From contig JBBQEB010000125.1 of assembly GCA_038320275.1 (NCBI GenBank), positions 1 through 11,371 on the forward strand: DNA of 11,371 nt, given 5' to 3'. Source of the DNA: Myxococcales bacterium (GTDB lineage Bacteria; Myxococcota; Myxococcia; Myxococcales; Anaeromyxobacteraceae). This document shows positions 943 to 11,371 of the stretch, in pieces. The notes beneath the pieces are model-generated. The model was not told where the DNA came from. It did no database searches and saw only the letters and a list, made by a program, of their open reading frames with translations. Position 1 is the stretch's first letter; each line of letters opens with the position of its first letter. Both the position numbers and the translations under genes were made by a program.

Positions 943-1315
943 CGGCAACGCCCAGCCCGTCGAACTGTCGCGGAACTTACGGCTCAAACGGGAACGAAGC
1001 GCTCGAGGGTGCGGCCCTTCACCTCCGGGGCAACCCTGGCCAGGCGAGCCAGCGGCCTCTCCCCGAACCGGGTCGACTCCGCGTAGGTGCTGGGCATGAG
1101 TCGAAGCATCTTCGGTCGGGCGCCGGATGCGCCCGCTCCAACCCGAGTGAGCCCCCCACGCACCGAACCGTCCCGGCAGTCCCTGGCTCTCATGGTTCGG
1201 ATGGGCGCGCGGAGAAGTTGCCGGAGACGCGAAGCCGAGCGTGATCTCCTGCGAGAGAGGTACGGCCCAGTGGGCCGTCAGCTCGGCGCCGAGGGCTTTT
1301 GAGGTGAGCGCAAGC

Positions 1316-1341: not shown

Positions 1342-1379
1342 GTGAACCTTCGTTCGGCCGGGAGGCTCCCACCAGCACC

Positions 1380-1727
1380 ATGCGCGAACGCCTCGTCTTC
1401 CCCGCCCTGGTCGCCCTCGGGCTCATCGGACTCGGCGGCCTCGCGCTCTGGCAAGCGCGCGGACCCGAGCGGCTGCGTGCGAGCGCAGCCGAGACCGGAA
1501 TGGCCGTGGCGGACCTCGCCATCCGGGAGATGGGTTGAGGTACCTGCCGGGCCGCGGTCCTGCGGTCCCTGGATCGGCTCGAGGGTGTGGCGAACGTCGT
1601 TCCAGGGAGGAGCGGCGTCACAGTCGCGTACGACGCAGCCCGCCTCACGCCGACGCGCATCGCGGAGACCGTGACGCGCGACACCGGGTACGCCGCGCGA
1701 CCGCCGGCCGCGACGCGCGAGCGGTGA
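1380..1727 (+). CDS. Membrane-anchored/exported heavy-metal-associated (HMA, MerP/CopZ-like) protein with predicted selenocysteine (U53, MxUxxC motif), 115 aa
   Basis: Manual translation: MRERLVFPALVALGLIGLGGLALWQARGPERLRASAAETGMAVADLAIREMG[TGA 1536-1538]GTCRAAVLRSLDRLEGVANVVPGRSGVTVAYDAARLTPTRIAETVTRDTGYAARPPAATRER*. The HMA pattern (L-x-I-x-x-M-x-C-x-x-C...V-x-x-x-L-x-x-L-x-G-V...V-x-Y-D...I...GY) spans the TGA, which occupies the first Cys position. The N-terminus is hydrophobic. Confidence 0.85.
1547..1572 (+). promoter_or_regulatory. Putative bacterial SECIS element
   Basis: Stem GGGCCGCG (1549-1556) pairs with TGCGGTCC (1561-1568), 8 bp including 2 G-U. The apical loop GUCC (1557-1560) starts with GU, 18 nt after the UGA. 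The stem can extend with CC/GG (1547-1548/1571-1572). Confidence 0.7.
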
Positions 1728-1845
1728 CGAGCGAACGACGCGCGGCTGCGCACCATGAATGACATGCCGGGGAGCAGCGGGAGGAGTCGCCTCTTCGACA
1801 GCGGGTCATGAAACGCCAGCGCTTCTTCGGCCAGAACCTGCTGCC

Positions 1846-2206: not shown

Positions 2207-2942
2207 GGGTCTTTCCTTTCGTGGTGCTGCGGTGATCGGGGCCGCGAGGAAGCGGTCCCGAGTTGTTGCGGGCGGAGGTCACCTCCCGAAGCGGCCTTCA
2301 CCTCGCCCCGCGACTTCGCGAAGAGCGACAGCTCGACGGTGCCTTGTCCGCCACGACCTTCGCGAGCGATTGCACGCGCGCGAACCAGCCCTCCGTGTAC
2401 TTGGGGCCGATGTGATAGGCGTCGCGGTCGAAGTGCTGGATCGTAGCCCGGATGCGGATGGTCTTCTTCTCGCCATAGGCGCCGGGCGGGAAGAGGAGCG
2501 CAGTACCTTTCACCTGCTCCTTGCGCCCGTCGGCGGGGCCGCGGCCGCAGGCTGTGAACGGGATCTGCGCGGCGAAAGAGGCCGGCTGCTCCGGCGCGAG
2601 CCGCCCCACCTTCACGCCCGCGAACCTCGCCTCGAAGCGGCACTCCTTGGGATCGCTCTTCTTGTTCGTCACCCACTGCTGGAAGTGCTCGGTCTTGGTG
2701 TCCTCGTTGTCGACCTTGATGCTCGAGAGCGGGACGGAGCAACTGCCCGAGGCGGTACCCACCTTCTCGTCGTAGGTGAGGTCGCAGGCGACCTGCGAGC
2801 TCTGCGCGCTGATGCGCTCGCCCAGCCTCGCGTCGAAGACGGCGGTGAAGGCGTTGTTGCCGGCATCGGGATCGGTCTTGAAGTCCTCGGCAGCGGCAGG
2901 GGCGGCGAGCACAATGGAGGCGAGAACGACGGCGCGGATCAT
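2203..2942 (-). CDS. Secreted YceI-like beta-barrel protein with an apparent 1-nt frameshift near 2342 (as written the frame stops at 2298)
   Basis: ATG 2942 with a GGAG RBS and signal peptide MIRAVVLASIVLAAPAAA. YceI-like segments SGSCSVPLSSIKVDNEDTKTEH and FDRDAYHIG. The expected last strand VVADK-GTVELSLFAK is split between two frames at AAG|GC. The second frame ends at 2203 with an ATGA overlap on the bufA2 start. Confidence 0.7.
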
Positions 2943-3066
2943 GGGCAGGTCTCCGCGCCCGGCGGTCGTGTCGAGCGTCATGCCGTTGCTGACTCGGAGC
3001 GCGCGGCGCGATTACAGCGCGGGCGCGGACGGCCCGTTTGGACCGTTCACACGTCTCGCCCTGCGG

Positions 3067-4248
3067 TCAGGACGCCCGGGCGAGGGCCGCCTTGACCCAC
3101 CCGAAGCCGATCCGCTCCTGTTCGAGCCGGACGCGCTCGCCAATCTTCCCCGACAGAAGCTCGCGGTGGAGCGCGCTCTCCGAGGCATCGAGATGTCGCA
3201 GCTCCTGGAGACACGGGTCCCGCTCCTCCACCCACATCCGCCGGTGCGCGAGGAGCGTCTCCCTGTCCATCATGATTGATGTGGTGGCCGGGTAAACCCC
3301 TCGGAACCTGTCCAGCATCGCGAAGCCGTGGGTGTCGATGTCTCCCCAGTAGAGGAGTCGCCGACGCCCGAGCCAGGGCACCTCGACGAGCCGATCCACC
3401 GCGTAACCCTGGCCGAACAGCACGAGCGTCCTCGACCGCGGTGGCAGCGCGAGCCCGTTCACCTCGTTCTCGGTGACGACGACGTCGTCGACATCGATGT
3501 CCAGCCGCGACAGGTCTTCGATGGGAACGGTCAGGTCGGCGAGCCCCTGGATGCGCAGGTCGTCGTCGAGCAGCCGAAAGCGAACGAGAAACGGCTTCTC
3601 CCGCAAACCGAACCGTTTGTCGAACGAGATCCCCTTTTCGGTGCCGATCGCCGACTGCGGAAGGACCTGGCCGAGCAGCTCCGCCAACAGACCGCGATGC
3701 TGCTCGATGAACTTCGTGTCCACGCCCTCGACCTCGAGCTGCCTCCGGTAGAGGCCGGAACGCGGATGATCCCGGAACCACGCCAGCACGGCCAGGAGCC
3801 CGCCCCACTCCTCCCCCACCTCGAGAACCTTCATCGGATTGCGTGCGGCCCACGAATTTAGCTCCGCGAACGCGCCGCCGATGCGCCTCCGAAGGGAGTG
3901 GAAGCGCTCGGCCGAGCGCACCCTCCCGATCATCCGGAGCGCGGTGGCCTGCGTTGGAATGCGGATTCCGCTCGGGATCCGGTTGGCTCCGAGCTGCCTG
4001 TGGGCGATCTCCTCGAAAGCCACTTCGTATCCGTGCGCCTTGCTCCCCGCCTCGAGCTCGCGGATCCACGCGCGCGCCTCTTCGAATCTCGACCCGAGCT
4101 CGAGACGAGTGGGGCCGCGGAATCGCAGCGGCATGGGGAAGAATGGGTCGTCCCATTCCGACCGTCCGAGGAGTTTGCCGTTCGCCCATAGGCGCTCGAC
4201 CTGGCCGACGATGTCGATGGGCCTGGTCCAGCGTCCCTGCGACATCAC
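3067..4248 (-). CDS. jetD: Wadjet JetD TOPRIM nuclease (DUF3322 + DUF2220)
   Basis: N-terminal GxNxIP and YxRQLxVxGVDTKFIE motifs. TOPRIM residues VVTENEVNG and YWGDIDTHGF, C-terminal RLEQERI. Overlaps the jetC stop (GTG 4248 or ATG 4245). Confidence 0.93.
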   Translation of the reverse strand: MMSQGRWTRPIDIVGQVERLWANGKLLGRSEWDDPFFPMPLRFRGPTRLELGSRFEEARAWIRELEAGSKAHGYEVAFEEIAHRQLGANRIPSGIRIPTQATALRMIGRVRSAERFHSLRRRIGGAFAELNSWAARNPMKVLEVGEEWGGLLAVLAWFRDHPRSGLYRRQLEVEGVDTKFIEQHRGLLAELLGQVLPQSAIGTEKGISFDKRFGLREKPFLVRFRLLDDDLRIQGLADLTVPIEDLSRLDIDVDDVVVTENEVNGLALPPRSRTLVLFGQGYAVDRLVEVPWLGRRRLLYWGDIDTHGFAMLDRFRGVYPATTSIMMDRETLLAHRRMWVEERDPCLQELRHLDASESALHRELLSGKIGERVRLEQERIGFGWVKAALARAS

Positions 4249-7200
4249 GCGCTCCGCCGCGCCTTCTCTGCGCGGTACTGCTCGATGGTGAGGTTCCGGA
4301 GCTTCGACCGCTGCCCATCCGTGTTCGAGACGAACCCGACGTTCGCCACGAAGGGCTCGATGACGTGGATCTTCTGGAGCGGCGTCACCACGAGGAGCTG
4401 CAGGTTCAGCTTCCGGAAGAGCTCGAGCCCGTAGGTGGCCGACTCGTCCGATCCGCGCCCGAAGGCCTCGTCGATGACGACGAAGCGGAACGACCTGGAG
4501 CGCGTCTCACCCCACTCGAGCCCGAACTGATATGCGAGGCTCGCGGCGAGCACGGTGTACGCGAGCTTCTCCTTCTGCCCGCCCGATTTGCCGCCCGAAT
4601 CGGCGTAGTGCTCGTGCTCCGCGTCGCCTTCGACGAACCGCTCGGACGCCGAGAAGGCGAACCAGTTGCGGACGTCGGTCACCTTGCGGGTCCAGCGATC
4701 GTCGAGGTCGGTGGTTCCCTCCCTGCCCCGGAAGCGCTCGATGATCTTCTTCACCTGCAGGAACTTCGCCTCCGAGTACGCTTCGTCTCCCGATCCGACG
4801 AGCGTCCCCTCGGTACAGCCCCTGAGGTCCTGCTGGAAGTCGCGCACCTCGGCGTCCACCGCAGCCGAGGCTTCGAGCCGGATGTACCGCCCGGGGTTGA
4901 ACTCGATCTCCCGGAGCGATCGATTGATCCGATCGATCCGCTCCCGGATCACCTGGCTCTCTCGGCGGAGCTGCGATTGGAAGTTTGCGACCTCGCGGAT
5001 GGTGTTCTCGTTGAGGAGGTCCTTGAAGCGCCGCTCAAATCGCGGGAGATCGTCACGGCTGAGCACGTCGAGCATGCGGCGGTACTCGTTGGCGGCCTCG
5101 ACCGCCGCAGCGGCGTCCCTCGTCTCGACCGGGTACGCGCTCCGATACTCCTGCATGTCCGCGACGATGCGCTGCCCGAGCCGCGTCCTGCGTAGCTCCG
5201 CCGCGTCGATGCGCTGCTGCAAGCACTCCCGAAGCGAACGCTCCACCTCTCCCGCATTCTCGATGTCGAGCGCCACCCCCGCGCTCGCCTGGTCGTGAAG
5301 CGCCTGAAGCGTCGGGAACGAGTCGCGCTCTCCCAACGTGGTGGCGGACTCGAGCTCCCGCGTCGTCTCGAGCCTTCGGGCGAGCGCCTTGCTCTGCTCC
5401 TCGGCCCGGACGATCTCGGTCTGAACCGCCTTGCGCTCCTTCTCGCACCTCGCAAGCTCCGCCTCGATGACCGCGAGCTGGCCCTCCAGGGTCCGGAGAA
5501 CGTTCGACGCACTCTCCAGGGCCTTCATCTCGGCCTGGAGTTGCTCCTGCTCGACGACGCTCGTGCGCCAGTCCACGTCCGAGAAGCACGGGTGCGCCGC
5601 GAGCGCATGGAGGGCCGCGAGAAGTCTCTGGTCGCGCTCTTCCTGGTCTCGGGCGGCGGCGCAGGATGCCGCCTCCGTTCGCGCCCTCTCCTCGATCACC
5701 TCGAGCGAACGGTCGAGGGCGGCCAGCTTCTCGGTGTTTGCCCAGCCGAGGACGTACTGCGTTCGGTCGTCGATGCGCCGCCGGTCGTCCTTGGTGTGCC
5801 TCGGGCCACCCTTCACCTGACCGAACCGCGTCAGCGCCCTCGGCTCCCGGCGGAACTCCTCCAGCGAGTCGCAGCAGGCGAGGTCGAACCCTCGTGCGAC
5901 CTCCACCTCGACCCACGCTGCGAGCGGCTCCCCATGCTTGAGCTCGAGCTTGCGGATGAGGGAATTCGGACTTGCGCTCGCCCTCCCCGCCTTGCAGTCC
6001 TTCGCCCGGAAGTACGACATCCGCGTCCCGAGGTGGTTCGCGTCCACCCACGCCGACACCGCTGCGTAGTGAGCCTCCGGCACCAGGAGCGACGTGCCGA
6101 ATCCCCGGAGCACGCGCTCGATGGCCCCTTCCCAGGAGCGTTCGTCGGAGCGGACGCGCAGGAGCTCGCCCGCGAACGGCAAGTCCGCCTCTTCGATGCC
6201 GGTCGCCGCGCAGAGCGTCGTCCGCAGGCGCAGGAAGTCGGCCGGGATGTTGGACCGGCGTGCCCGGATCGCCTCGATCTCCTCGGCCGTCTCGGCCCGT
6301 TCCTTTGCTGCTGCCTGAAGACGGACCCCGGCGTCGATGGCTCGCTGCCGCAGTTCTGCGATCCGGCGTTCGGCTGCGGAGGCGACCGAGGCGGCCTCGC
6401 GCTGATTGGTGAGGAACGCCTGATCATCCCGCGCCTCGGCGAGGCCAGCGTCTCGCGCATGACGCTCGTACTCGGATGCTCGCCGCTCGCGCTGCGCACG
6501 TTCTCGGCCGCAAGCTTCGAGGGAAGAGCGGATCCGCTCGATGCGCTCCCCTCCGTTCCGGGCGATATCCTGCTTGAGGTCGTCACGGCGCCCGTTTTGC
6601 TTTCTCCTCGTCTCGTCGGCCTGGTCCGCGTCGATCGCGAGGCTCGCCTGCCGGTCCGCGGACTTCTCGAGCGCTGCCGAGAGCAGCTCCAACGTGAGCG
6701 AGGCCACCCAGGCGCGCAGCGCATCGCGGGCAGCGCGGTCGTGGCCGATCGCGGCCGCCAGTCGATCGTACTCGTCGCACTCCTCGACGATCGGACCGAG
6801 GCGGCGGACCTGGTCCTTCGCCTTCAGCACGGCCTCGTGAGCCCGGGTCAGGTCGTCGACGTGCCCGATGAGCGCTGTGATGCGCTCCTCGACCGGGAAG
6901 GGCTGCAACATGTGCTGCCGCACGAAGTCGGTGAGATTCCCCACCGACTTCATGGACACGGTCTGGTTGAAGAGGTCGAGGGCTTGGTCGTTCTCGATGC
7001 CGAAGCGCCGGCGGAAGGCGGCCTGGTAGGGCGGGAACGAATCCCAGACCTCCTTGGTGAGGGTCTTGAGGCGCTTTCGCAGCCCCGGAACGTCGTCGAA
7101 CCCGGAGAAGTGCTGGGCGATGGTGAGGGCCTCGTCTGCGACGACGAAGAGGCGCGCCGGCTGACCCTCCTGATCCCGCAGCCAGAAGAGCTGCGCGACC

Positions 7201-7610
7201 GTCACGGACTGCCGGTATCCCTCGTTGTGAAACTGCGCGAGGAGTACGGAGTAGCTGTTGGGGTCGCGCAATGCGACCGGCCTCGCTCCACCTCCGGTCT
7301 CGCTCCGCTCCGACTTGTAGTGTCCGAGGAAGTAGGAGCGGACCGTGCGCTCGCGAGCGTCCGCGCCGGCCGCCTTGTTGAACGAGACGCGCTGAGGAGG
7401 GACGAGCAGTGTCGTGATGGCGTCCACGATGGTAGACTTCCCCGACCCGATGTCGCCGGTGAGGAGCGAGGTGTCGCCTCCAGCGTGGAACCCCCACACG
7501 CGGCCGTCGAACGTACCCCAGTTGTACAGCTCGAGACGCTGCAGCCGGAACCCGGCTCGCTCGACCGGAGCGGCGAGGTCCATCAGGTCTCGCTGGCTGC
7601 GGGCGTTCAT
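4245..7610 (-). CDS. jetC: Wadjet JetC SMC-family ATPase (about 1121 aa)
   Basis: RLQRLELYNWGTF, Walker A GDIGSGKST, long coiled coils with a central hinge (LPFAGELL...WEGAIERVL), signature SGGQKEKL, Walker B VVIDEAF. True start ATG 7610 (ATGA overlap with the jetB stop), not 8153. Confidence 0.95.
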   Translation of the reverse strand: MNARSQRDLMDLAAPVERAGFRLQRLELYNWGTFDGRVWGFHAGGDTSLLTGDIGSGKSTIVDAITTLLVPPQRVSFNKAAGADARERTVRSYFLGHYKSERSETGGGARPVALRDPNSYSVLLAQFHNEGYRQSVTVAQLFWLRDQEGQPARLFVVADEALTIAQHFSGFDDVPGLRKRLKTLTKEVWDSFPPYQAAFRRRFGIENDQALDLFNQTVSMKSVGNLTDFVRQHMLQPFPVEERITALIGHVDDLTRAHEAVLKAKDQVRRLGPIVEECDEYDRLAAAIGHDRAARDALRAWVASLTLELLSAALEKSADRQASLAIDADQADETRRKQNGRRDDLKQDIARNGGERIERIRSSLEACGRERAQRERRASEYERHARDAGLAEARDDQAFLTNQREAASVASAAERRIAELRQRAIDAGVRLQAAAKERAETAEEIEAIRARRSNIPADFLRLRTTLCAATGIEEADLPFAGELLRVRSDERSWEGAIERVLRGFGTSLLVPEAHYAAVSAWVDANHLGTRMSYFRAKDCKAGRASASPNSLIRKLELKHGEPLAAWVEVEVARGFDLACCDSLEEFRREPRALTRFGQVKGGPRHTKDDRRRIDDRTQYVLGWANTEKLAALDRSLEVIEERARTEAASCAAARDQEERDQRLLAALHALAAHPCFSDVDWRTSVVEQEQLQAEMKALESASNVLRTLEGQLAVIEAELARCEKERKAVQTEIVRAEEQSKALARRLETTRELESATTLGERDSFPTLQALHDQASAGVALDIENAGEVERSLRECLQQRIDAAELRRTRLGQRIVADMQEYRSAYPVETRDAAAAVEAANEYRRMLDVLSRDDLPRFERRFKDLLNENTIREVANFQSQLRRESQVIRERIDRINRSLREIEFNPGRYIRLEASAAVDAEVRDFQQDLRGCTEGTLVGSGDEAYSEAKFLQVKKIIERFRGREGTTDLDDRWTRKVTDVRNWFAFSASERFVEGDAEHEHYADSGGKSGGQKEKLAYTVLAASLAYQFGLEWGETRSRSFRFVVIDEAFGRGSDESATYGLELFRKLNLQLLVVTPLQKIHVIEPFVANVGFVSNTDGQRSKLRNLTIEQYRAEKARRSA

Positions 7611-8221
7611 CGACCTGCCTCGCGAGCTCCTTCGGGTTCGGCGCCGGAGGCTTCCGGGAGCGGCCGGTACACGGCGAGGAGCTTCTCCAGCCACTCCCCG
7701 TCCACGAACGCCTTGATGAGGCGAACCACCTCGTACTCGTCTTCCCGGCCGCGGAGCGGCCGCAGGAACCCGAGCTCCACGACCTTGTTCAGGTGAGCCC
7801 CGATCTGATCGACGAGCTTCGCCTCGTTCGTCGTGGTGGGGAGGAACTGGCGCAGGAGATCGACGAGGTCTTCCTTGCGCAGGACGACGCGCCGGTCGCC
7901 GCCGCCCGCCTCGGTCTCCGCGACCTTCTTGCGCAGCAGGACGAGGAGGAGGCTCACCTTGAATCCGAGTGGCCGGCGCGGGACGAGGCGTGGAAGAGGT
8001 TCCTCGCCGGGCTCTTGCGGACGCTGGCGAAGAAAGGCGTAGCCGTCGGCCTCGTCGACCTCGAGGGCGAGCCCGAGCGGCACCACGTGGTCGCGCACCC
8101 GTGCCTGCAGGGACAGGAGCTGGGACCAGCGCCGCTCGTCGTCCTCGCGCCATAGAACGCCCTTCATCAGCGACACGAGGACGAGCGGGAACGCCGTTGC
8201 CGTGTCCGTCGGGGCCTTCAT
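7607..8221 (-). CDS. jetB: Wadjet JetB KITE subunit (DUF4194), about 204 aa
   Basis: LMKGV...W...LGLxLxVDEADGYAFLRQ...LPRLVPRRPL...SLLLVLLRK...LGFLR...EVxRLIKAFVD. Start ATG 8221 overlaps the jetA stop (ATGA). Confidence 0.93.
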   Translation of the reverse strand: MKAPTDTATAFPLVLVSLMKGVLWREDDERRWSQLLSLQARVRDHVVPLGLALEVDEADGYAFLRQRPQEPGEEPLPRLVPRRPLGFKVSLLLVLLRKKVAETEAGGGDRRVVLRKEDLVDLLRQFLPTTTNEAKLVDQIGAHLNKVVELGFLRPLRGREDEYEVVRLIKAFVDGEWLEKLLAVYRPLPEASGAEPEGAREAGR

Positions 8222-9669
8222 GTGGAGGACCTCGTGAAGATCACGCGCGGGACCTCCGCGGTGCGACCCTTCCCGCCTTCGACATTCCAATCGATGCGCT
8301 GTACGGCTGATTCGTCGATGAGCGCGCGATCGTCCTCGGATGCCACCGCGAAGTAGGTCACCAGCTCCGCGAGACCGTGCTGCAGTGGATAGGCGTTCAC
8401 GAGCTCTGCGAGCGAGACGCGATCTCGCCGCTGCAGCGCCTCGCGGACGTTCGACCGCAGCCGTTCGCGGTCCACGGCGACCTGCTCGAAGAGCTCCTCG
8501 GCAGAGACCTCCTCGTCGGCCAGCAGCACCCCCGTCGAGAGTCGCGCCTCGAACGGCGGTATGAACAAGGGCCGCTCGAGCGGGAGGGCGACGTCGGGCG
8601 ACGTGCCGTCCACGGCCGCGACGACGCCCTCCGGCGGGTCGTCCTTCATCGCGAGGGCGGCGCGCTCGATCTCGCGAATGGTCTCCATGATCCGGCGATT
8701 CTCGAGGAAGGCGCGGTCATCGAGGTAGCGGCGGAGCTGCTCCGAGAGCTTCGCGACGGTGCGCTGCGTCGCCTCTCCAGCCTCGAGCCAGTCGTAGTGG
8801 ATGCGGCGGAGGCGGGGATCGGGACTCAGGGCCTCGATGGCCGTGAGCTCGAAGACACGATCGAGCTTCCGGGTGAGCTCTTCCTGACGCTCCGGTGACA
8901 TGAGGAAGTCCCAGAAAGCGCGGAAGCTCGTGCCCTGGTCCGACGCAGCGATGGCATCCCTCTCGCCGAGGATGTCGTCGAGCAGCTCGCCGCGGCCGCC
9001 CTCCCACGCGGTGATGCGCTGGCGCACGTCCCGGTCGAGCGCGTGGAAGCTCTGCTCCAGTTCGCGGAAGTCGGCGAGGAGCTCCCGGGCGGTGCTCTCC
9101 ATCTGCTGAAACCGCTCGCGGAGCGCCGGTGCGTCCATCGGCGCCAGGCGGCCGCCCCGGATCTCGTCCATCTCGGCCTCGATCTGGTCCTTCCTTCGCT
9201 GCAGGTCGGCGAGGCGCGTCGAGGGATCGAGCTCACTCCCCTCCACCATGTCGGTCAGGAGCTGAAACACGGTCATGAGCCGCGACTGCGTCCCGACGAA
9301 GCGTCGCTCGAGAAGTCGCGCGATCCACTGGATCGCCCGCTCCGCGGCCGGAGTGAGGTCGAAGTGGGCCTCGTCGCTGCCCGATGGGTAGAACTTGCGA
9401 AGCCAGCCGTTCGAGTTCGACGCCCACTCGTCGAGGTACGCCTCCGCCGCGCGGGGTGCGTCGAAGCCCATCTCCCTCGCCGCGTGCAGGTGGTCCTCGA
9501 GTCGCAGCGACAGTGCCTGCTGCGTCTCCGTACGCCGGTTGGTCGCGACAAAGGCCTGGTGCAGAAAGCTCACGACGAGCGGGGCGTGGGCGGCCGTGAG
9601 GAGTCGCCACGCCGGATTCTGATCGCGAAGCCGCTGGAGGCTCGCGAGGTCGAGGAGCTGCAGTGACAT
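8218..9669 (-). CDS. jetA: Wadjet JetA kleisin subunit (DUF3375), 483 aa
   Basis: PAWRLL...APLVVSFL, YLDEWA...GWLRKFY, FVGTQSRL, SDQGTSFRAFWDFL, GLAELVTY, C-terminal PRVIF. First gene of a four-gene overlapping operon. Confidence 0.93.
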   Translation of the reverse strand: MSLQLLDLASLQRLRDQNPAWRLLTAAHAPLVVSFLHQAFVATNRRTETQQALSLRLEDHLHAAREMGFDAPRAAEAYLDEWASNSNGWLRKFYPSGSDEAHFDLTPAAERAIQWIARLLERRFVGTQSRLMTVFQLLTDMVEGSELDPSTRLADLQRRKDQIEAEMDEIRGGRLAPMDAPALRERFQQMESTARELLADFRELEQSFHALDRDVRQRITAWEGGRGELLDDILGERDAIAASDQGTSFRAFWDFLMSPERQEELTRKLDRVFELTAIEALSPDPRLRRIHYDWLEAGEATQRTVAKLSEQLRRYLDDRAFLENRRIMETIREIERAALAMKDDPPEGVVAAVDGTSPDVALPLERPLFIPPFEARLSTGVLLADEEVSAEELFEQVAVDRERLRSNVREALQRRDRVSLAELVNAYPLQHGLAELVTYFAVASEDDRALIDESAVQRIDWNVEGGKGRTAEVPRVIFTRSST

Positions 9670-10189: not shown

Positions 10190-10197
10190 GGGTCCAA

Positions 10198-10229
<32 letters not shown>

Positions 10230-10355: not shown

Positions 10356-11162
10356 ATGCGCCGAAGAGCCTCCAGCCTCCGCCTCTCGAACTACCTCGAC
10401 GACCTCGTCGGGCGCGGGCGCTACGCCCTCGACCGGGCGGAGGCGTTGCGTGTTCTCGGCTCCACGCCCGAAGCGCTGGAGGCATCCGTGCGCCGCCTCG
10501 TCGCCAAGCGCCGCCTCGCGGTGCCTCGCCGCGGATTCTACGTCATCGTCCCGGCCGAGTACCGGAGCGCTGGCGCGCCACCGCCCGACTGGTTCATCGC
10601 CGACCTCACGCGCTTCGAGGGGAGACCCTACTACGTGGGCCTGCTCTCGGCCGCCGCCCTCCACGGATCGGCCCACCATCAGCCCCAGGAGTTCCAGGTC
10701 GTGACCGACGGGCCGCTCCGGCCGGCCAGGGCGGGGCGGGCGCGCATCCGATTCTTCACCAAGGCGACCGCGGCATCGACTCCAGCGATCGACATGAAGA
10801 CCCAGACCGGCTCGATGCGCGTCTCGACGCCCGAGGCGACCGCCCTCGACCTCGTCCGGTACGCGAAGCGCGCCGGCCACCTCGACCACGTGGCGACCGT
10901 CCTCTCCGAGCTCGCCGAGAAGCTCGACGCGAGGCGGCTCCTCGCCGTGGCCCGCACGGACGTTGAGATCGCCCACGTCCAGCGACTCGGTCACATCCTC
11001 GAGGCCTTGGGCGCCTCCTCGGCGACGAGGCCGCTGGCCGCCTGGATCTCCGATCGGAAGCCACGCCGGGTCCTGCTTCGCCCGGACCGCCCGGACCGGC
11101 CTCTCGAGGAAGACCCGCGGTGGCGGGTCGGCGTCAATGAGCCGGTGGAGATGGACCGATGA
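10356..11162 (+). CDS. abiEi: Type IV toxin-antitoxin AbiEi-family antitoxin / transcriptional regulator (268 aa)
   Basis: N-terminal wHTH (GRYAL..AEA...RL..K.RL..PRRGFYVIVP.EY), YYVGLLSAAALHGSAHHQPQEFQV, VSTPEATALDL, QRLGHILE, RWRVGVN. Start ATG 10356. The 5' extension to 9663 crosses the tRNA fragment and is not credible. Confidence 0.9.
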   Translation: MRRRASSLRLSNYLDDLVGRGRYALDRAEALRVLGSTPEALEASVRRLVAKRRLAVPRRGFYVIVPAEYRSAGAPPPDWFIADLTRFEGRPYYVGLLSAAALHGSAHHQPQEFQVVTDGPLRPARAGRARIRFFTKATAASTPAIDMKTQTGSMRVSTPEATALDLVRYAKRAGHLDHVATVLSELAEKLDARRLLAVARTDVEIAHVQRLGHILEALGASSATRPLAAWISDRKPRRVLLRPDRPDRPLEEDPRWRVGVNEPVEMDR

Positions 11163-11197
11163 TCCCCAGGGCCCACGTCACGGCCTGGCGCTCACAC
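11159..11197 (+). pseudogene. N-terminal stub of an AbiEii-family nucleotidyltransferase toxin
   Basis: ATGA overlap with the antitoxin stop. Reads MIPRAHVTAWRSH, matching the usual MIP-x-x-x-I/V-x-x-W-R start of toxins paired with this AbiEi type, but the expected continuation (APW...QVEQDL) is absent. Confidence 0.65.
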
Positions 11198-11224
11198 GAA
11201 GGGACCTGGGAGCACGGGCCACCC

Positions 11225-11371
11225 ATGACAATGCGGCCGTTCAACCTGCTCTTCCCCGAGCTCGCCGACCGGGAGTGCCGGACCCTCCGCCCGATGAACC
11301 ACGAGCGGCTGCCGAGCCGCCGCTTCGTGTTCCTGGAGTCCTACTGCGTCGAGCCGCGATGCGACTGCCGA
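11225..11371 (+). CDS. N-terminal part of a Cys-motif hypothetical protein (YC-x-x-P-x-CDCR, often found in SEC-C-domain proteins), runs off the window
   Basis: MTMRPFNLLFPELADRECRTLRPMNHERLPSRRFVFLESYCVEPRCDCR... with GGGAG at 11208-11212. Open to the end of the window and in frame with ATG 11159. Confidence 0.6.
   Translation, partial: MTMRPFNLLFPELADRECRTLRPMNHERLPSRRFVFLESYCVEPRCDCR

Follow-up and report, generated by a model that had tools for sequence, protein, structure and literature searches.

The gene at 1380-1727 and its surroundings

The window (the whole stretch of DNA analysed, 11,371 nt) belongs to an Anaeromyxobacteraceae genome that is 90.7% complete and consists of 343 contigs (G000). 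On its forward strand lies a predicted gene for a 115-aa membrane-anchored HMA selenoprotein (1380..1727), which runs from the ATG at 1380 across a single in-frame TGA (1536..1538), assigned from TGA/Cys pairing and truncated homologues as the predicted Sec53 of a U-x-x-C motif, to the true stop TGA (1725..1727), whose position differs among homologues. The read-through translation starts with MRERL and reads REMG-U-GT-C-R around residue 53. Codon-usage scores favoured the frame of 1380-1727 both before and after the internal TGA, and the read-through protein, with U read as C, matched the PF00403 HMA model with 37 bits against a cut-off of 24.8, so that the continuous HMA-like protein described by the first-pass annotation was borne out. 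A second Sec at the final TGA (1725-1727) was considered and rejected because the protein ends vary among homologues and the fold downstream has a z of -0.30.

The architecture has three parts, all encoded on the forward strand. Hydropathy, AlphaFold2 and alignment place a hydrophobic helix at residues 5-23 (1392..1448; mean hydropathy 2.34), in which F7 is conserved and G14 invariant; it has no lipobox Cys, there being no Cys before U53 in the read-through protein. A linker helix of the form RLRxxAxxxG (1461..1496), specific to the protein family and supported by alignment and AlphaFold2, has R31, A36 and G40 invariant. The HMA domain spans residues 46-104 (1515..1691) in the PF00403 match. 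The AlphaFold2 model, built from a 12-row alignment, reached a pLDDT of 84.6, with a helix at 6-26, the linker helix at 28-39 and a ferredoxin-like domain, and its top Foldseek matches were MerP (1osd), the CopA N-domain (1kqk) and CopZ. The HMA fold is thus a high-confidence prediction. By alignment, the second motif ligand is Cys56 (1545..1547), followed by an invariant Arg57; the family conserves both chalcogen ligands as well as the loop-5 G-Y/F, and the fold suggests that the U53/C56 loop binds metal. The motif had been read as a canonical MxCxxC with Sec in place of its first Cys. The position of Sec stands; the form is not quite canonical, with E replacing the G of GMxCxxC at -3, a variable residue at -1, and the Arg past the second Cys invariant.

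DNA similarity to the orthologous locus of a relative (G002) covers only 1342-1834, that is, a promoter-like element, the gene, and the end of a decayed gene. The latter is a 3' remnant of an SQR-like oxidoreductase gene (1760..1834, reverse strand), identified by its DNA similarity to G002, where the SQR-like gene is convergent with the orthologue. LSKRRLLPLLPGM is readable in the ORF at 1190-1849 that holds this remnant, and a frameshift left the direct protein comparison weak. The possibility that 1090-1340 holds a decayed thioredoxin gene was dropped, because DNA similarity to the G002 locus does not extend upstream of 1342. In G002 the genes just upstream of the orthologue form a cluster (L021:2456-7963) encoding an ArsM-like methyltransferase, a small CxxC protein, two thioredoxins, TrxB, a radical SAM/SPASM protein and an MbdU-N-like protein.

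The remaining genes of the window are of varied kinds. Upstream of the selenoprotein gene is a class I SAM methyltransferase gene (412-942, forward). Downstream, on the reverse strand, a BufA2 bufferin precursor is encoded at 1925-2206 (NF050166, 72 against a cut-off of 60); no DUF692-like partner is called beside it, and a relative of the gene upstream of it adjoins, in L128, a gene that we take to be DUF692-like. A gene at 2298-2981 (reverse) encodes a secreted protein with no Pfam match whose homologues all match only to about residue 201; the window copy is apparently frameshifted near its 3' end (near 2340), and a 98% piece lies on contig C271. Next comes a Wadjet (jetABCD-type) four-gene defence operon (3067-9669, reverse) encoding DUF3375, DUF4194/MksE, SbcC-like ATPase and DUF3322/JetD_C proteins. 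A tRNA-like remnant near 10190-10215 was not called by ARAGORN, and an AbiEi-type antitoxin gene and, after it, an ORF that the contig end interrupts occupy 10356-11371 (forward).

The in-frame TGA as a very likely selenocysteine codon

A class-wide search with a profile of the N-terminal half, in which 18 candidates were scored per genome, found the protein family in 7 of 368 genomes. Five have TGA forms (G000, G002, G020, G028 and G281, the last from another bacterial family) and two have Cys forms (G044 and G480). All six metagenome loci (L064-L069) carry the TGA, four of them being near-copies of G002. The Cys/TGA pairs anticipated at position 53 were therefore found: 9 orthologues have Cys where 5 genomes and 6 metagenome loci have TGA; among the best 150 HMMER matches, 7 single-domain, full-length homologues all have Cys and the same architecture. 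Across two bacterial families the TGA persists at protein identities of 43-83%, and the half downstream of it is conserved and stop-free. An 18-row tree separates 15 family members from three merT/merA-linked MerP-like proteins (99/97).

Other searches gave little. A single-sequence protein search returned no matches among 84 candidates, a word search with the full-length profile only 3 Cys forms, and a plasmid collection no match, while the ESM Atlas yielded generic HMA clusters under 0.9, which serve as leads only. A 'TGA' match in G142 was discarded as the ordinary stop after a Cys-form MerP-like gene.

A search with the N-terminal profile also retrieved 39 short database homologues, judged from their protein ends, every one of which ends at the codon before U (35 with REMG, 2 with REMR, 1 with REIG and 1 with RDMG). 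At least 39 database clusters thus consist of truncated fragments of 43-74 aa, and the gene adds a selenoprotein subfamily that is systematically mis-annotated.

The first-pass annotation had made its reading depend on selA, selB, selC and selD in the genome, and here selA, selC and selD were found. In the own genome we detected selA over the cut-off, a Sec-type selD with its own in-frame TGA, and two tRNA-Sec(UCA) genes (C231:1160 and C89:8313). Of SelB only the first 54-56 residues were found, cut off by the end of a contig and sharing 76-78% identity with the SelB of relatives; its C-terminal wing, which binds SECIS, was not found in the own assembly. Each of the two tRNA-Sec genes adjoins small toxin-antitoxin-like or mobile-looking ORFs. 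A crude scan gave further TGA read-through candidates in the own genome, which we take from their motifs to be Prx, FdhA, GrdB-like and rhodanese proteins. Among the relatives with TGA forms, G020, G028 and G281 have selA, selB, selD and tRNA-Sec, with a full SelB match in all three, and G002 has selD, tRNA-Sec and an 80-residue piece of selA at a contig end, selB not being found there. As for the Cys forms, G044 has none of selA, selB, selD or tRNA-Sec over the cut-offs, and G480 has selA yet keeps Cys.

Just past the TGA lies a predicted bSECIS hairpin, GGGCCGCG/GUCC/UGCGGUCC (1549..1568, forward; loop 1557-1560), put forward on codon constraint and consensus fit; the 8-bp stem with a GU-starting 4-nt loop 18 nt past the UGA was found just as the first-pass annotation described it. 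The consensus given in PMC13188914 comprises a loop of 3-9 nt with a G in its first two positions, a spacing of 16-37 nt and at most -7.5 kcal/mol. The window hairpin (GUCC, 18 nt, -12.7 kcal/mol) falls within it, along with those of 7 of 7 homologues when a bulge is allowed, though this loose rule also fits 333 of 1690 ordinary TGA stops (20%; long called genes of the GC-rich own genome). The strict form seen in the window occurs at only 2 of those 1690 stops. Measured against shuffled sequences, the hairpin shows no excess stability (z +0.26 to +1.35), and we dropped its stability as evidence for a selenoprotein on this ground and on the 333 fitting stops.

Conservation of the hairpin, which had been proposed as a check, was found in its sequence and codons and only partly in its shape. 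The 8-bp register is kept in 2 of 7 homologues, and in the remaining 5 the fold takes up a 1-nt bulge (about -13 kcal/mol); no compensatory change was seen in the arms among the 7 homologues, because the arms are either invariant or bulged. Nineteen nucleotides of the hairpin region are invariant across all 7. The SECIS codons, C-R-A-A-V-L, are invariant in 6 of 6 cases, against 2 of 18 codons for conserved residues elsewhere (7 distinct Sec genes, L067 being left out as a near-copy and Met and Trp codons excluded), and are under selective constraint. The codon string is not kept in the Cys forms of G044 and G480. Two FdhA-type SECIS of the own genome (GGUCU/AGUCU at 18 nt) resemble the window hairpin.

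The Sec machinery, the TGA/Cys pairs, the constrained SECIS codons and the homologues truncated at one site together strongly support the hidden selenoprotein that had been proposed, and the gene almost certainly reads TGA 1536-1538 as Sec, through a SECIS that would lie within codons 56-62. The chief alternative is a gene broken by a nonsense mutation or a sequencing error, leaving a pseudogene or only a 52-aa membrane peptide. It would agree with a hairpin no stabler than its shuffles and with the decay nearby (the SQR-like remnant and the frameshifted neighbour), but a TGA retained across two families at such divergence, a conserved and stop-free downstream half, constrained SECIS codons and the existence of Cys orthologues make it highly improbable.

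Family identity and membrane topology

No NCBIfam model reaches its cut-off with the window protein. The best-matching selenoprotein model is NF041115 (UxxU_metal_bind), listed in Table 1 of PMC13188914 as a UxxU metal-binding (seleno)protein and 'putative mercuric reductase', which gives 29.4 bits for the window protein and 29-50 bits for it and several family members against a cut-off of 95. In both, Sec occupies the metal site of an HMA-type domain, but NF041115 has UxxU rather than UxxC, and its 74-position model has neither the N-terminal helix nor the linker. The MerT/CopZ fusion-like selenoprotein NF045683 (MerT-CopZ-Se; 15.8 against 375) likewise joins a membrane part to an HMA domain with Sec, whereas the window protein has one helix instead of a MerT-like domain and is without mer context. 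Table 1 of PMC13188914 also gives a Sec cation-transporting P-type ATPase (TIGR01525, ABB15669.1), a heavy-metal ATPase whose UxxC presumably belongs to its HMA domain; in contrast, the window protein is stand-alone, of 115 aa, with a single helix and no ATPase domain. Two 'MerP' (Mercuric transport protein) selenoproteins in the GOS table of PMC2398784, known from that entry without sequence detail, are similar in combining a membrane part, an HMA domain and Sec.

Non-selenium relatives resemble the window protein in fold, in ligands at the CxxC positions and in the loop-5 GY (MerP and CopZ/Atx1; PDB 1osd, 2qif, 6ff2), and differ from it in that it has Sec, the motif E-M-x-U-x-x-C-R and a conserved anchor and linker helix. 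CopZ, for example, is a soluble chaperone without an anchor, whereas the window protein has its N-terminal helix. The CopZ models score 31.7 against 91 (NF033795), 28 against 95 (NF033794) and 18.4 against 85 (NF047957), the MerP model 23.7 against 92.55 (TIGR02052), and NF033556 25.4 against 180.

The first-pass annotation had held that the class is not wholly new, and this is correct: Sec-HMA proteins are catalogued in PMC13188914, where a UxxC P-type ATPase, a MerT-like protein and NF041115 stand among 119 tabulated selenoprotein families, and in PMC2398784. The part of the 119-family table that we consulted contains no stand-alone anchored UxxC HMA protein (reference 64 of that paper, on selenoprotein neighbourhoods, may bear on novelty), and the parts of PMC9312934, PMC1976440 and bioRxiv 2022.07.06.499078 that we consulted hold nothing closer. 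Since no NCBIfam family is reached and Sec-HMA proteins are already catalogued, the window protein is an uncatalogued subfamily of a catalogued group. The entries consulted in the selenoprotein catalogues give no function for any Sec-HMA protein, and, with Sec and Cys versions occurring naturally on a very small and well-understood fold, the gain from selenium at a metal-binding, as opposed to catalytic, site becomes directly testable.

Because F7 and G14 are kept at 30-50% identity in the alignment, a retained helix is favoured over a cleaved signal, and the N-terminal helix probably stays as a membrane anchor. The HMA domain would then, with slightly less confidence, face the periplasm; the 'extracytoplasmic' placement proposed earlier is thus carried over as a likelihood only, since the flanking charges do not decide topology. 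The window protein has 2 basic residues before the helix and 3 in the ten after it, most Sec forms have more after than before, and the charge rule discriminates poorly because 3 Arg likewise directly follow the helix of a TlpA-type redoxin of the family (L029).

The opposite orientation, N-out/C-in, would make the protein a cytoplasm-facing tethered Cu(I) chaperone that hands metal to a co-regulated YHS P-type ATPase, a role comparable to that of streptococcal CupA. The excess of basic residues after the helix in most Sec forms points this way, as do the co-regulated YHS/HMBD ATPases described below, which show no HMA match in the part scanned, and a cytoplasm that would keep the U/C pair reduced. 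Nevertheless, the short N-tail is basic too, the TlpA-type protein has the same three Arg, and the gene never shares an operon with an ATPase, and we regard this arrangement as unlikely.

Promoter-like element, putative regulon and proposed function

Eight nucleotides before the ATG lies a bipartite, ECF-type promoter-like element, GAACC (1344-1348)-N15-GGCTCCCA (1364-1371), on the forward strand (1344..1371), a position that suggests a leaderless or very short-leader mRNA. A weaker second copy, GAACC-N15-GGCTCTCA, is present at 1165..1192 (forward). All 7 Sec-form loci tested carry the exact form, GAACC-N15/16-GGCTCCCA, with 5-9 nt between it and the start codon; by eye, variants precede the G480 Cys form and an OsmC-HMA pair in G281, and none was found before the G044 Cys form. 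Across 92 family genomes the element has 183 matches (4 of which had defined the pattern), against 11 for the reversed pattern, with 76 genomes positive. Restricted to the own genome, a PWM scan showed no enrichment of relaxed matches (14, against 6-13 at other spacers). A scan found no sigma-70 promoter or intrinsic terminator, and a sigma-32 reading of the element was set aside because the spacing does not match the sigma-32 consensus.

In 85 of the 92 family genomes there is a gene for an ECF sigma factor that carries a zf-HC2 finger fused to its C-terminus. In the own genome its operon (C187:4740-5567 with C6:52290-53643, strand not given; gene names from inspection) reads TolC-MFP-RND-DUF2892-like-ECF and is pieced together from contigs C6 and C187, which overlap by 36 nt. 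The element thus lies upstream of the selenoprotein gene and also heads the sigma factor operon, there as a looser variant. Of 150 listed element matches, 7 fall within 10 kb of an ECF gene, against about 0.7 expected (counted by eye, with kin not independent); in G281 the ECF gene and the selenoprotein gene converge, and in G002 about 3 kb separate the two. The sigma factor is probably autoregulated through the GAACC/GGCTCC element.

This sigma factor resembles the ZAS thiol-stress ECF systems (SigH/RshA, RpoE/ChrR) in its zf-HC2 (HxxxCxxC) finger and in the TrxB/Trx-type genes of its putative regulon, but its finger is fused to the sigma factor and no membrane helix was seen. The fused-ZAS groups ECF48, ECF52 and ECF53 are described in PMC8999054 as actinobacterial and membrane-spanning. 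CorE-type ECF238, in which a Cys-rich tail is linked to metal genes, was rejected as an identity, a zf-HC2 finger being present rather than a short Cys-rich tail. We found no description of a zf-fused ECF of this kind or of its promoter in the parts of PMC7826278 and PMC8999054 consulted, and the supplement of PMC7826278 may hold the group.

The genes behind the element were surveyed at 38 loci, the 3 HMA loci being excluded; 23 of 33 ORFs were scanned and the rest named by visible likeness. Twelve loci precede thiol/sulfur redox genes (TrxB, TlpA, OsmC, rhodanese, HesB-like, Trx-like or octaheme tetrathionate-reductase-family), five precede YHS/HMBD P-type ATPases with no HMA match in the part scanned, three a small membrane ORF ending in TGA, three methyltransferases and ten other genes, and five have no called ORF. 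We take the YHS P-type ATPases, from their domain architecture, to be copper transporters; one lies 4.6 kb from the selenoprotein gene in G281. The other exact element of the own genome precedes a Met/His/Cys-rich lipoprotein gene (C94:2709-3458, reverse), whose paralogue (C83:12667-13275, reverse) lies in an RND/P-ATPase metal cluster; the C94 gene also adjoins a two-component system. The selenoprotein gene is thus likely, on comparative grounds, to belong to a thiol-, sulfur- and copper-stress sigma factor regulon, transcribed from the GAACC/GGCTCCCA promoter probably by the family-wide zf-HC2-fused ECF.

Since the element ties the gene to such a regulon, Cu is the likeliest metal and a redox role is a real rival. 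We favour, at about even chance, a stress-induced, membrane-held trap that would bind soft metals through a selenolate, Cu(I) being the likeliest. The selenolate/thiolate pair U53-x-x-C56 would capture soft metal ions during thiol, sulfur or metal stress, co-regulated TlpA/thioredoxin systems would reduce the site, and the selenoprotein would act as a metal buffer during export by the co-regulated P-type ATPase and RND pump. Several observations count against a metal trap: the gene shares no transcript with a transporter partner, its motif deviates from GMxCxxC, and redox genes outnumber metal genes by 12 to 5 in the sampled regulon.

These same redox genes favour a repurposed HMA fold, in which U53-C56 would act in the membrane as a selenenylsulfide or sulfane-sulfur relay within the stress regulon. 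Neighbourhoods of the gene differ among genomes, with Trx, ArsM-like and SQR-like genes in G002, OmpA-MotB-like and msrPQ genes in G020 and G028, OsmC in G281 and nothing informative in G044 and G480; the Trx and SQR-like neighbours of G002 and the OsmC of G281 agree with a relay. So do oxidised MerP as best structural match of the model, the usual role of ZAS zinc fingers as oxidative-stress sensors (PMC8999054) and the view that most UxxC selenoproteins are redox proteins (PMC13188914). The fold and loop-5 residues are, however, of the metal-chaperone type, and the regulon also has a metal-export arm. We know of no HMA-fold oxidoreductase, and we hold the relay to be a lesser possibility than the trap.

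Mercury, which had been named first among the candidate ligands, is not supported. A MerP-like periplasmic scavenger exploiting Hg-Se affinity could account for MerP as top Foldseek match, for the weak matches to TIGR02052, NF033556 and NF045683 and for the MerP-labelled selenoproteins in the GOS table of PMC2398784, but those matches lie far under their cut-offs, no mer genes are called among the neighbours in the 5 Sec-form genomes, and the true merT-linked MerP-like Cys genes form a separate clade; we consider it very unlikely.

The putative regulon surprises more than the selenoprotein itself. Tentatively, and at rather less than even chance, we propose an undescribed stress regulon of Anaeromyxobacteraceae and relatives under a one-piece zinc-finger ECF (GAACC-N15/16-GGCTCCCA), which would co-induce hidden selenoproteins (HMA, HesB-like, rhodanese and GVPT-U) with thioredoxin, sulfur-transfer and copper-export genes, the HMA protein serving as a membrane selenol trap or relay and possibly as the first HMA fold in Se-S redox/sulfur chemistry. 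The element is a handle for further hidden selenoproteins and for a likely sigma-factor regulon across the whole bacterial family.

Other candidate selenoproteins are encoded directly behind it. Read-through candidates are a HesB-like GHG-TGA-GG (L033:1536-1862; NF038090, 42 against 85) and a rhodanese GMG-TGA-SLS (L080). The small membrane ORF ending ...LPxxGVPT-TGA occurs near 9200 on contig C5 of the own genome (reverse) and in L035, L102 and L105; it has no Pfam or NCBIfam match, and past its TGA the sequence continues in conserved form, with 19 nt on a SECIS-like GGUC loop, so that the GVPT-U protein is likely another hidden selenoprotein.
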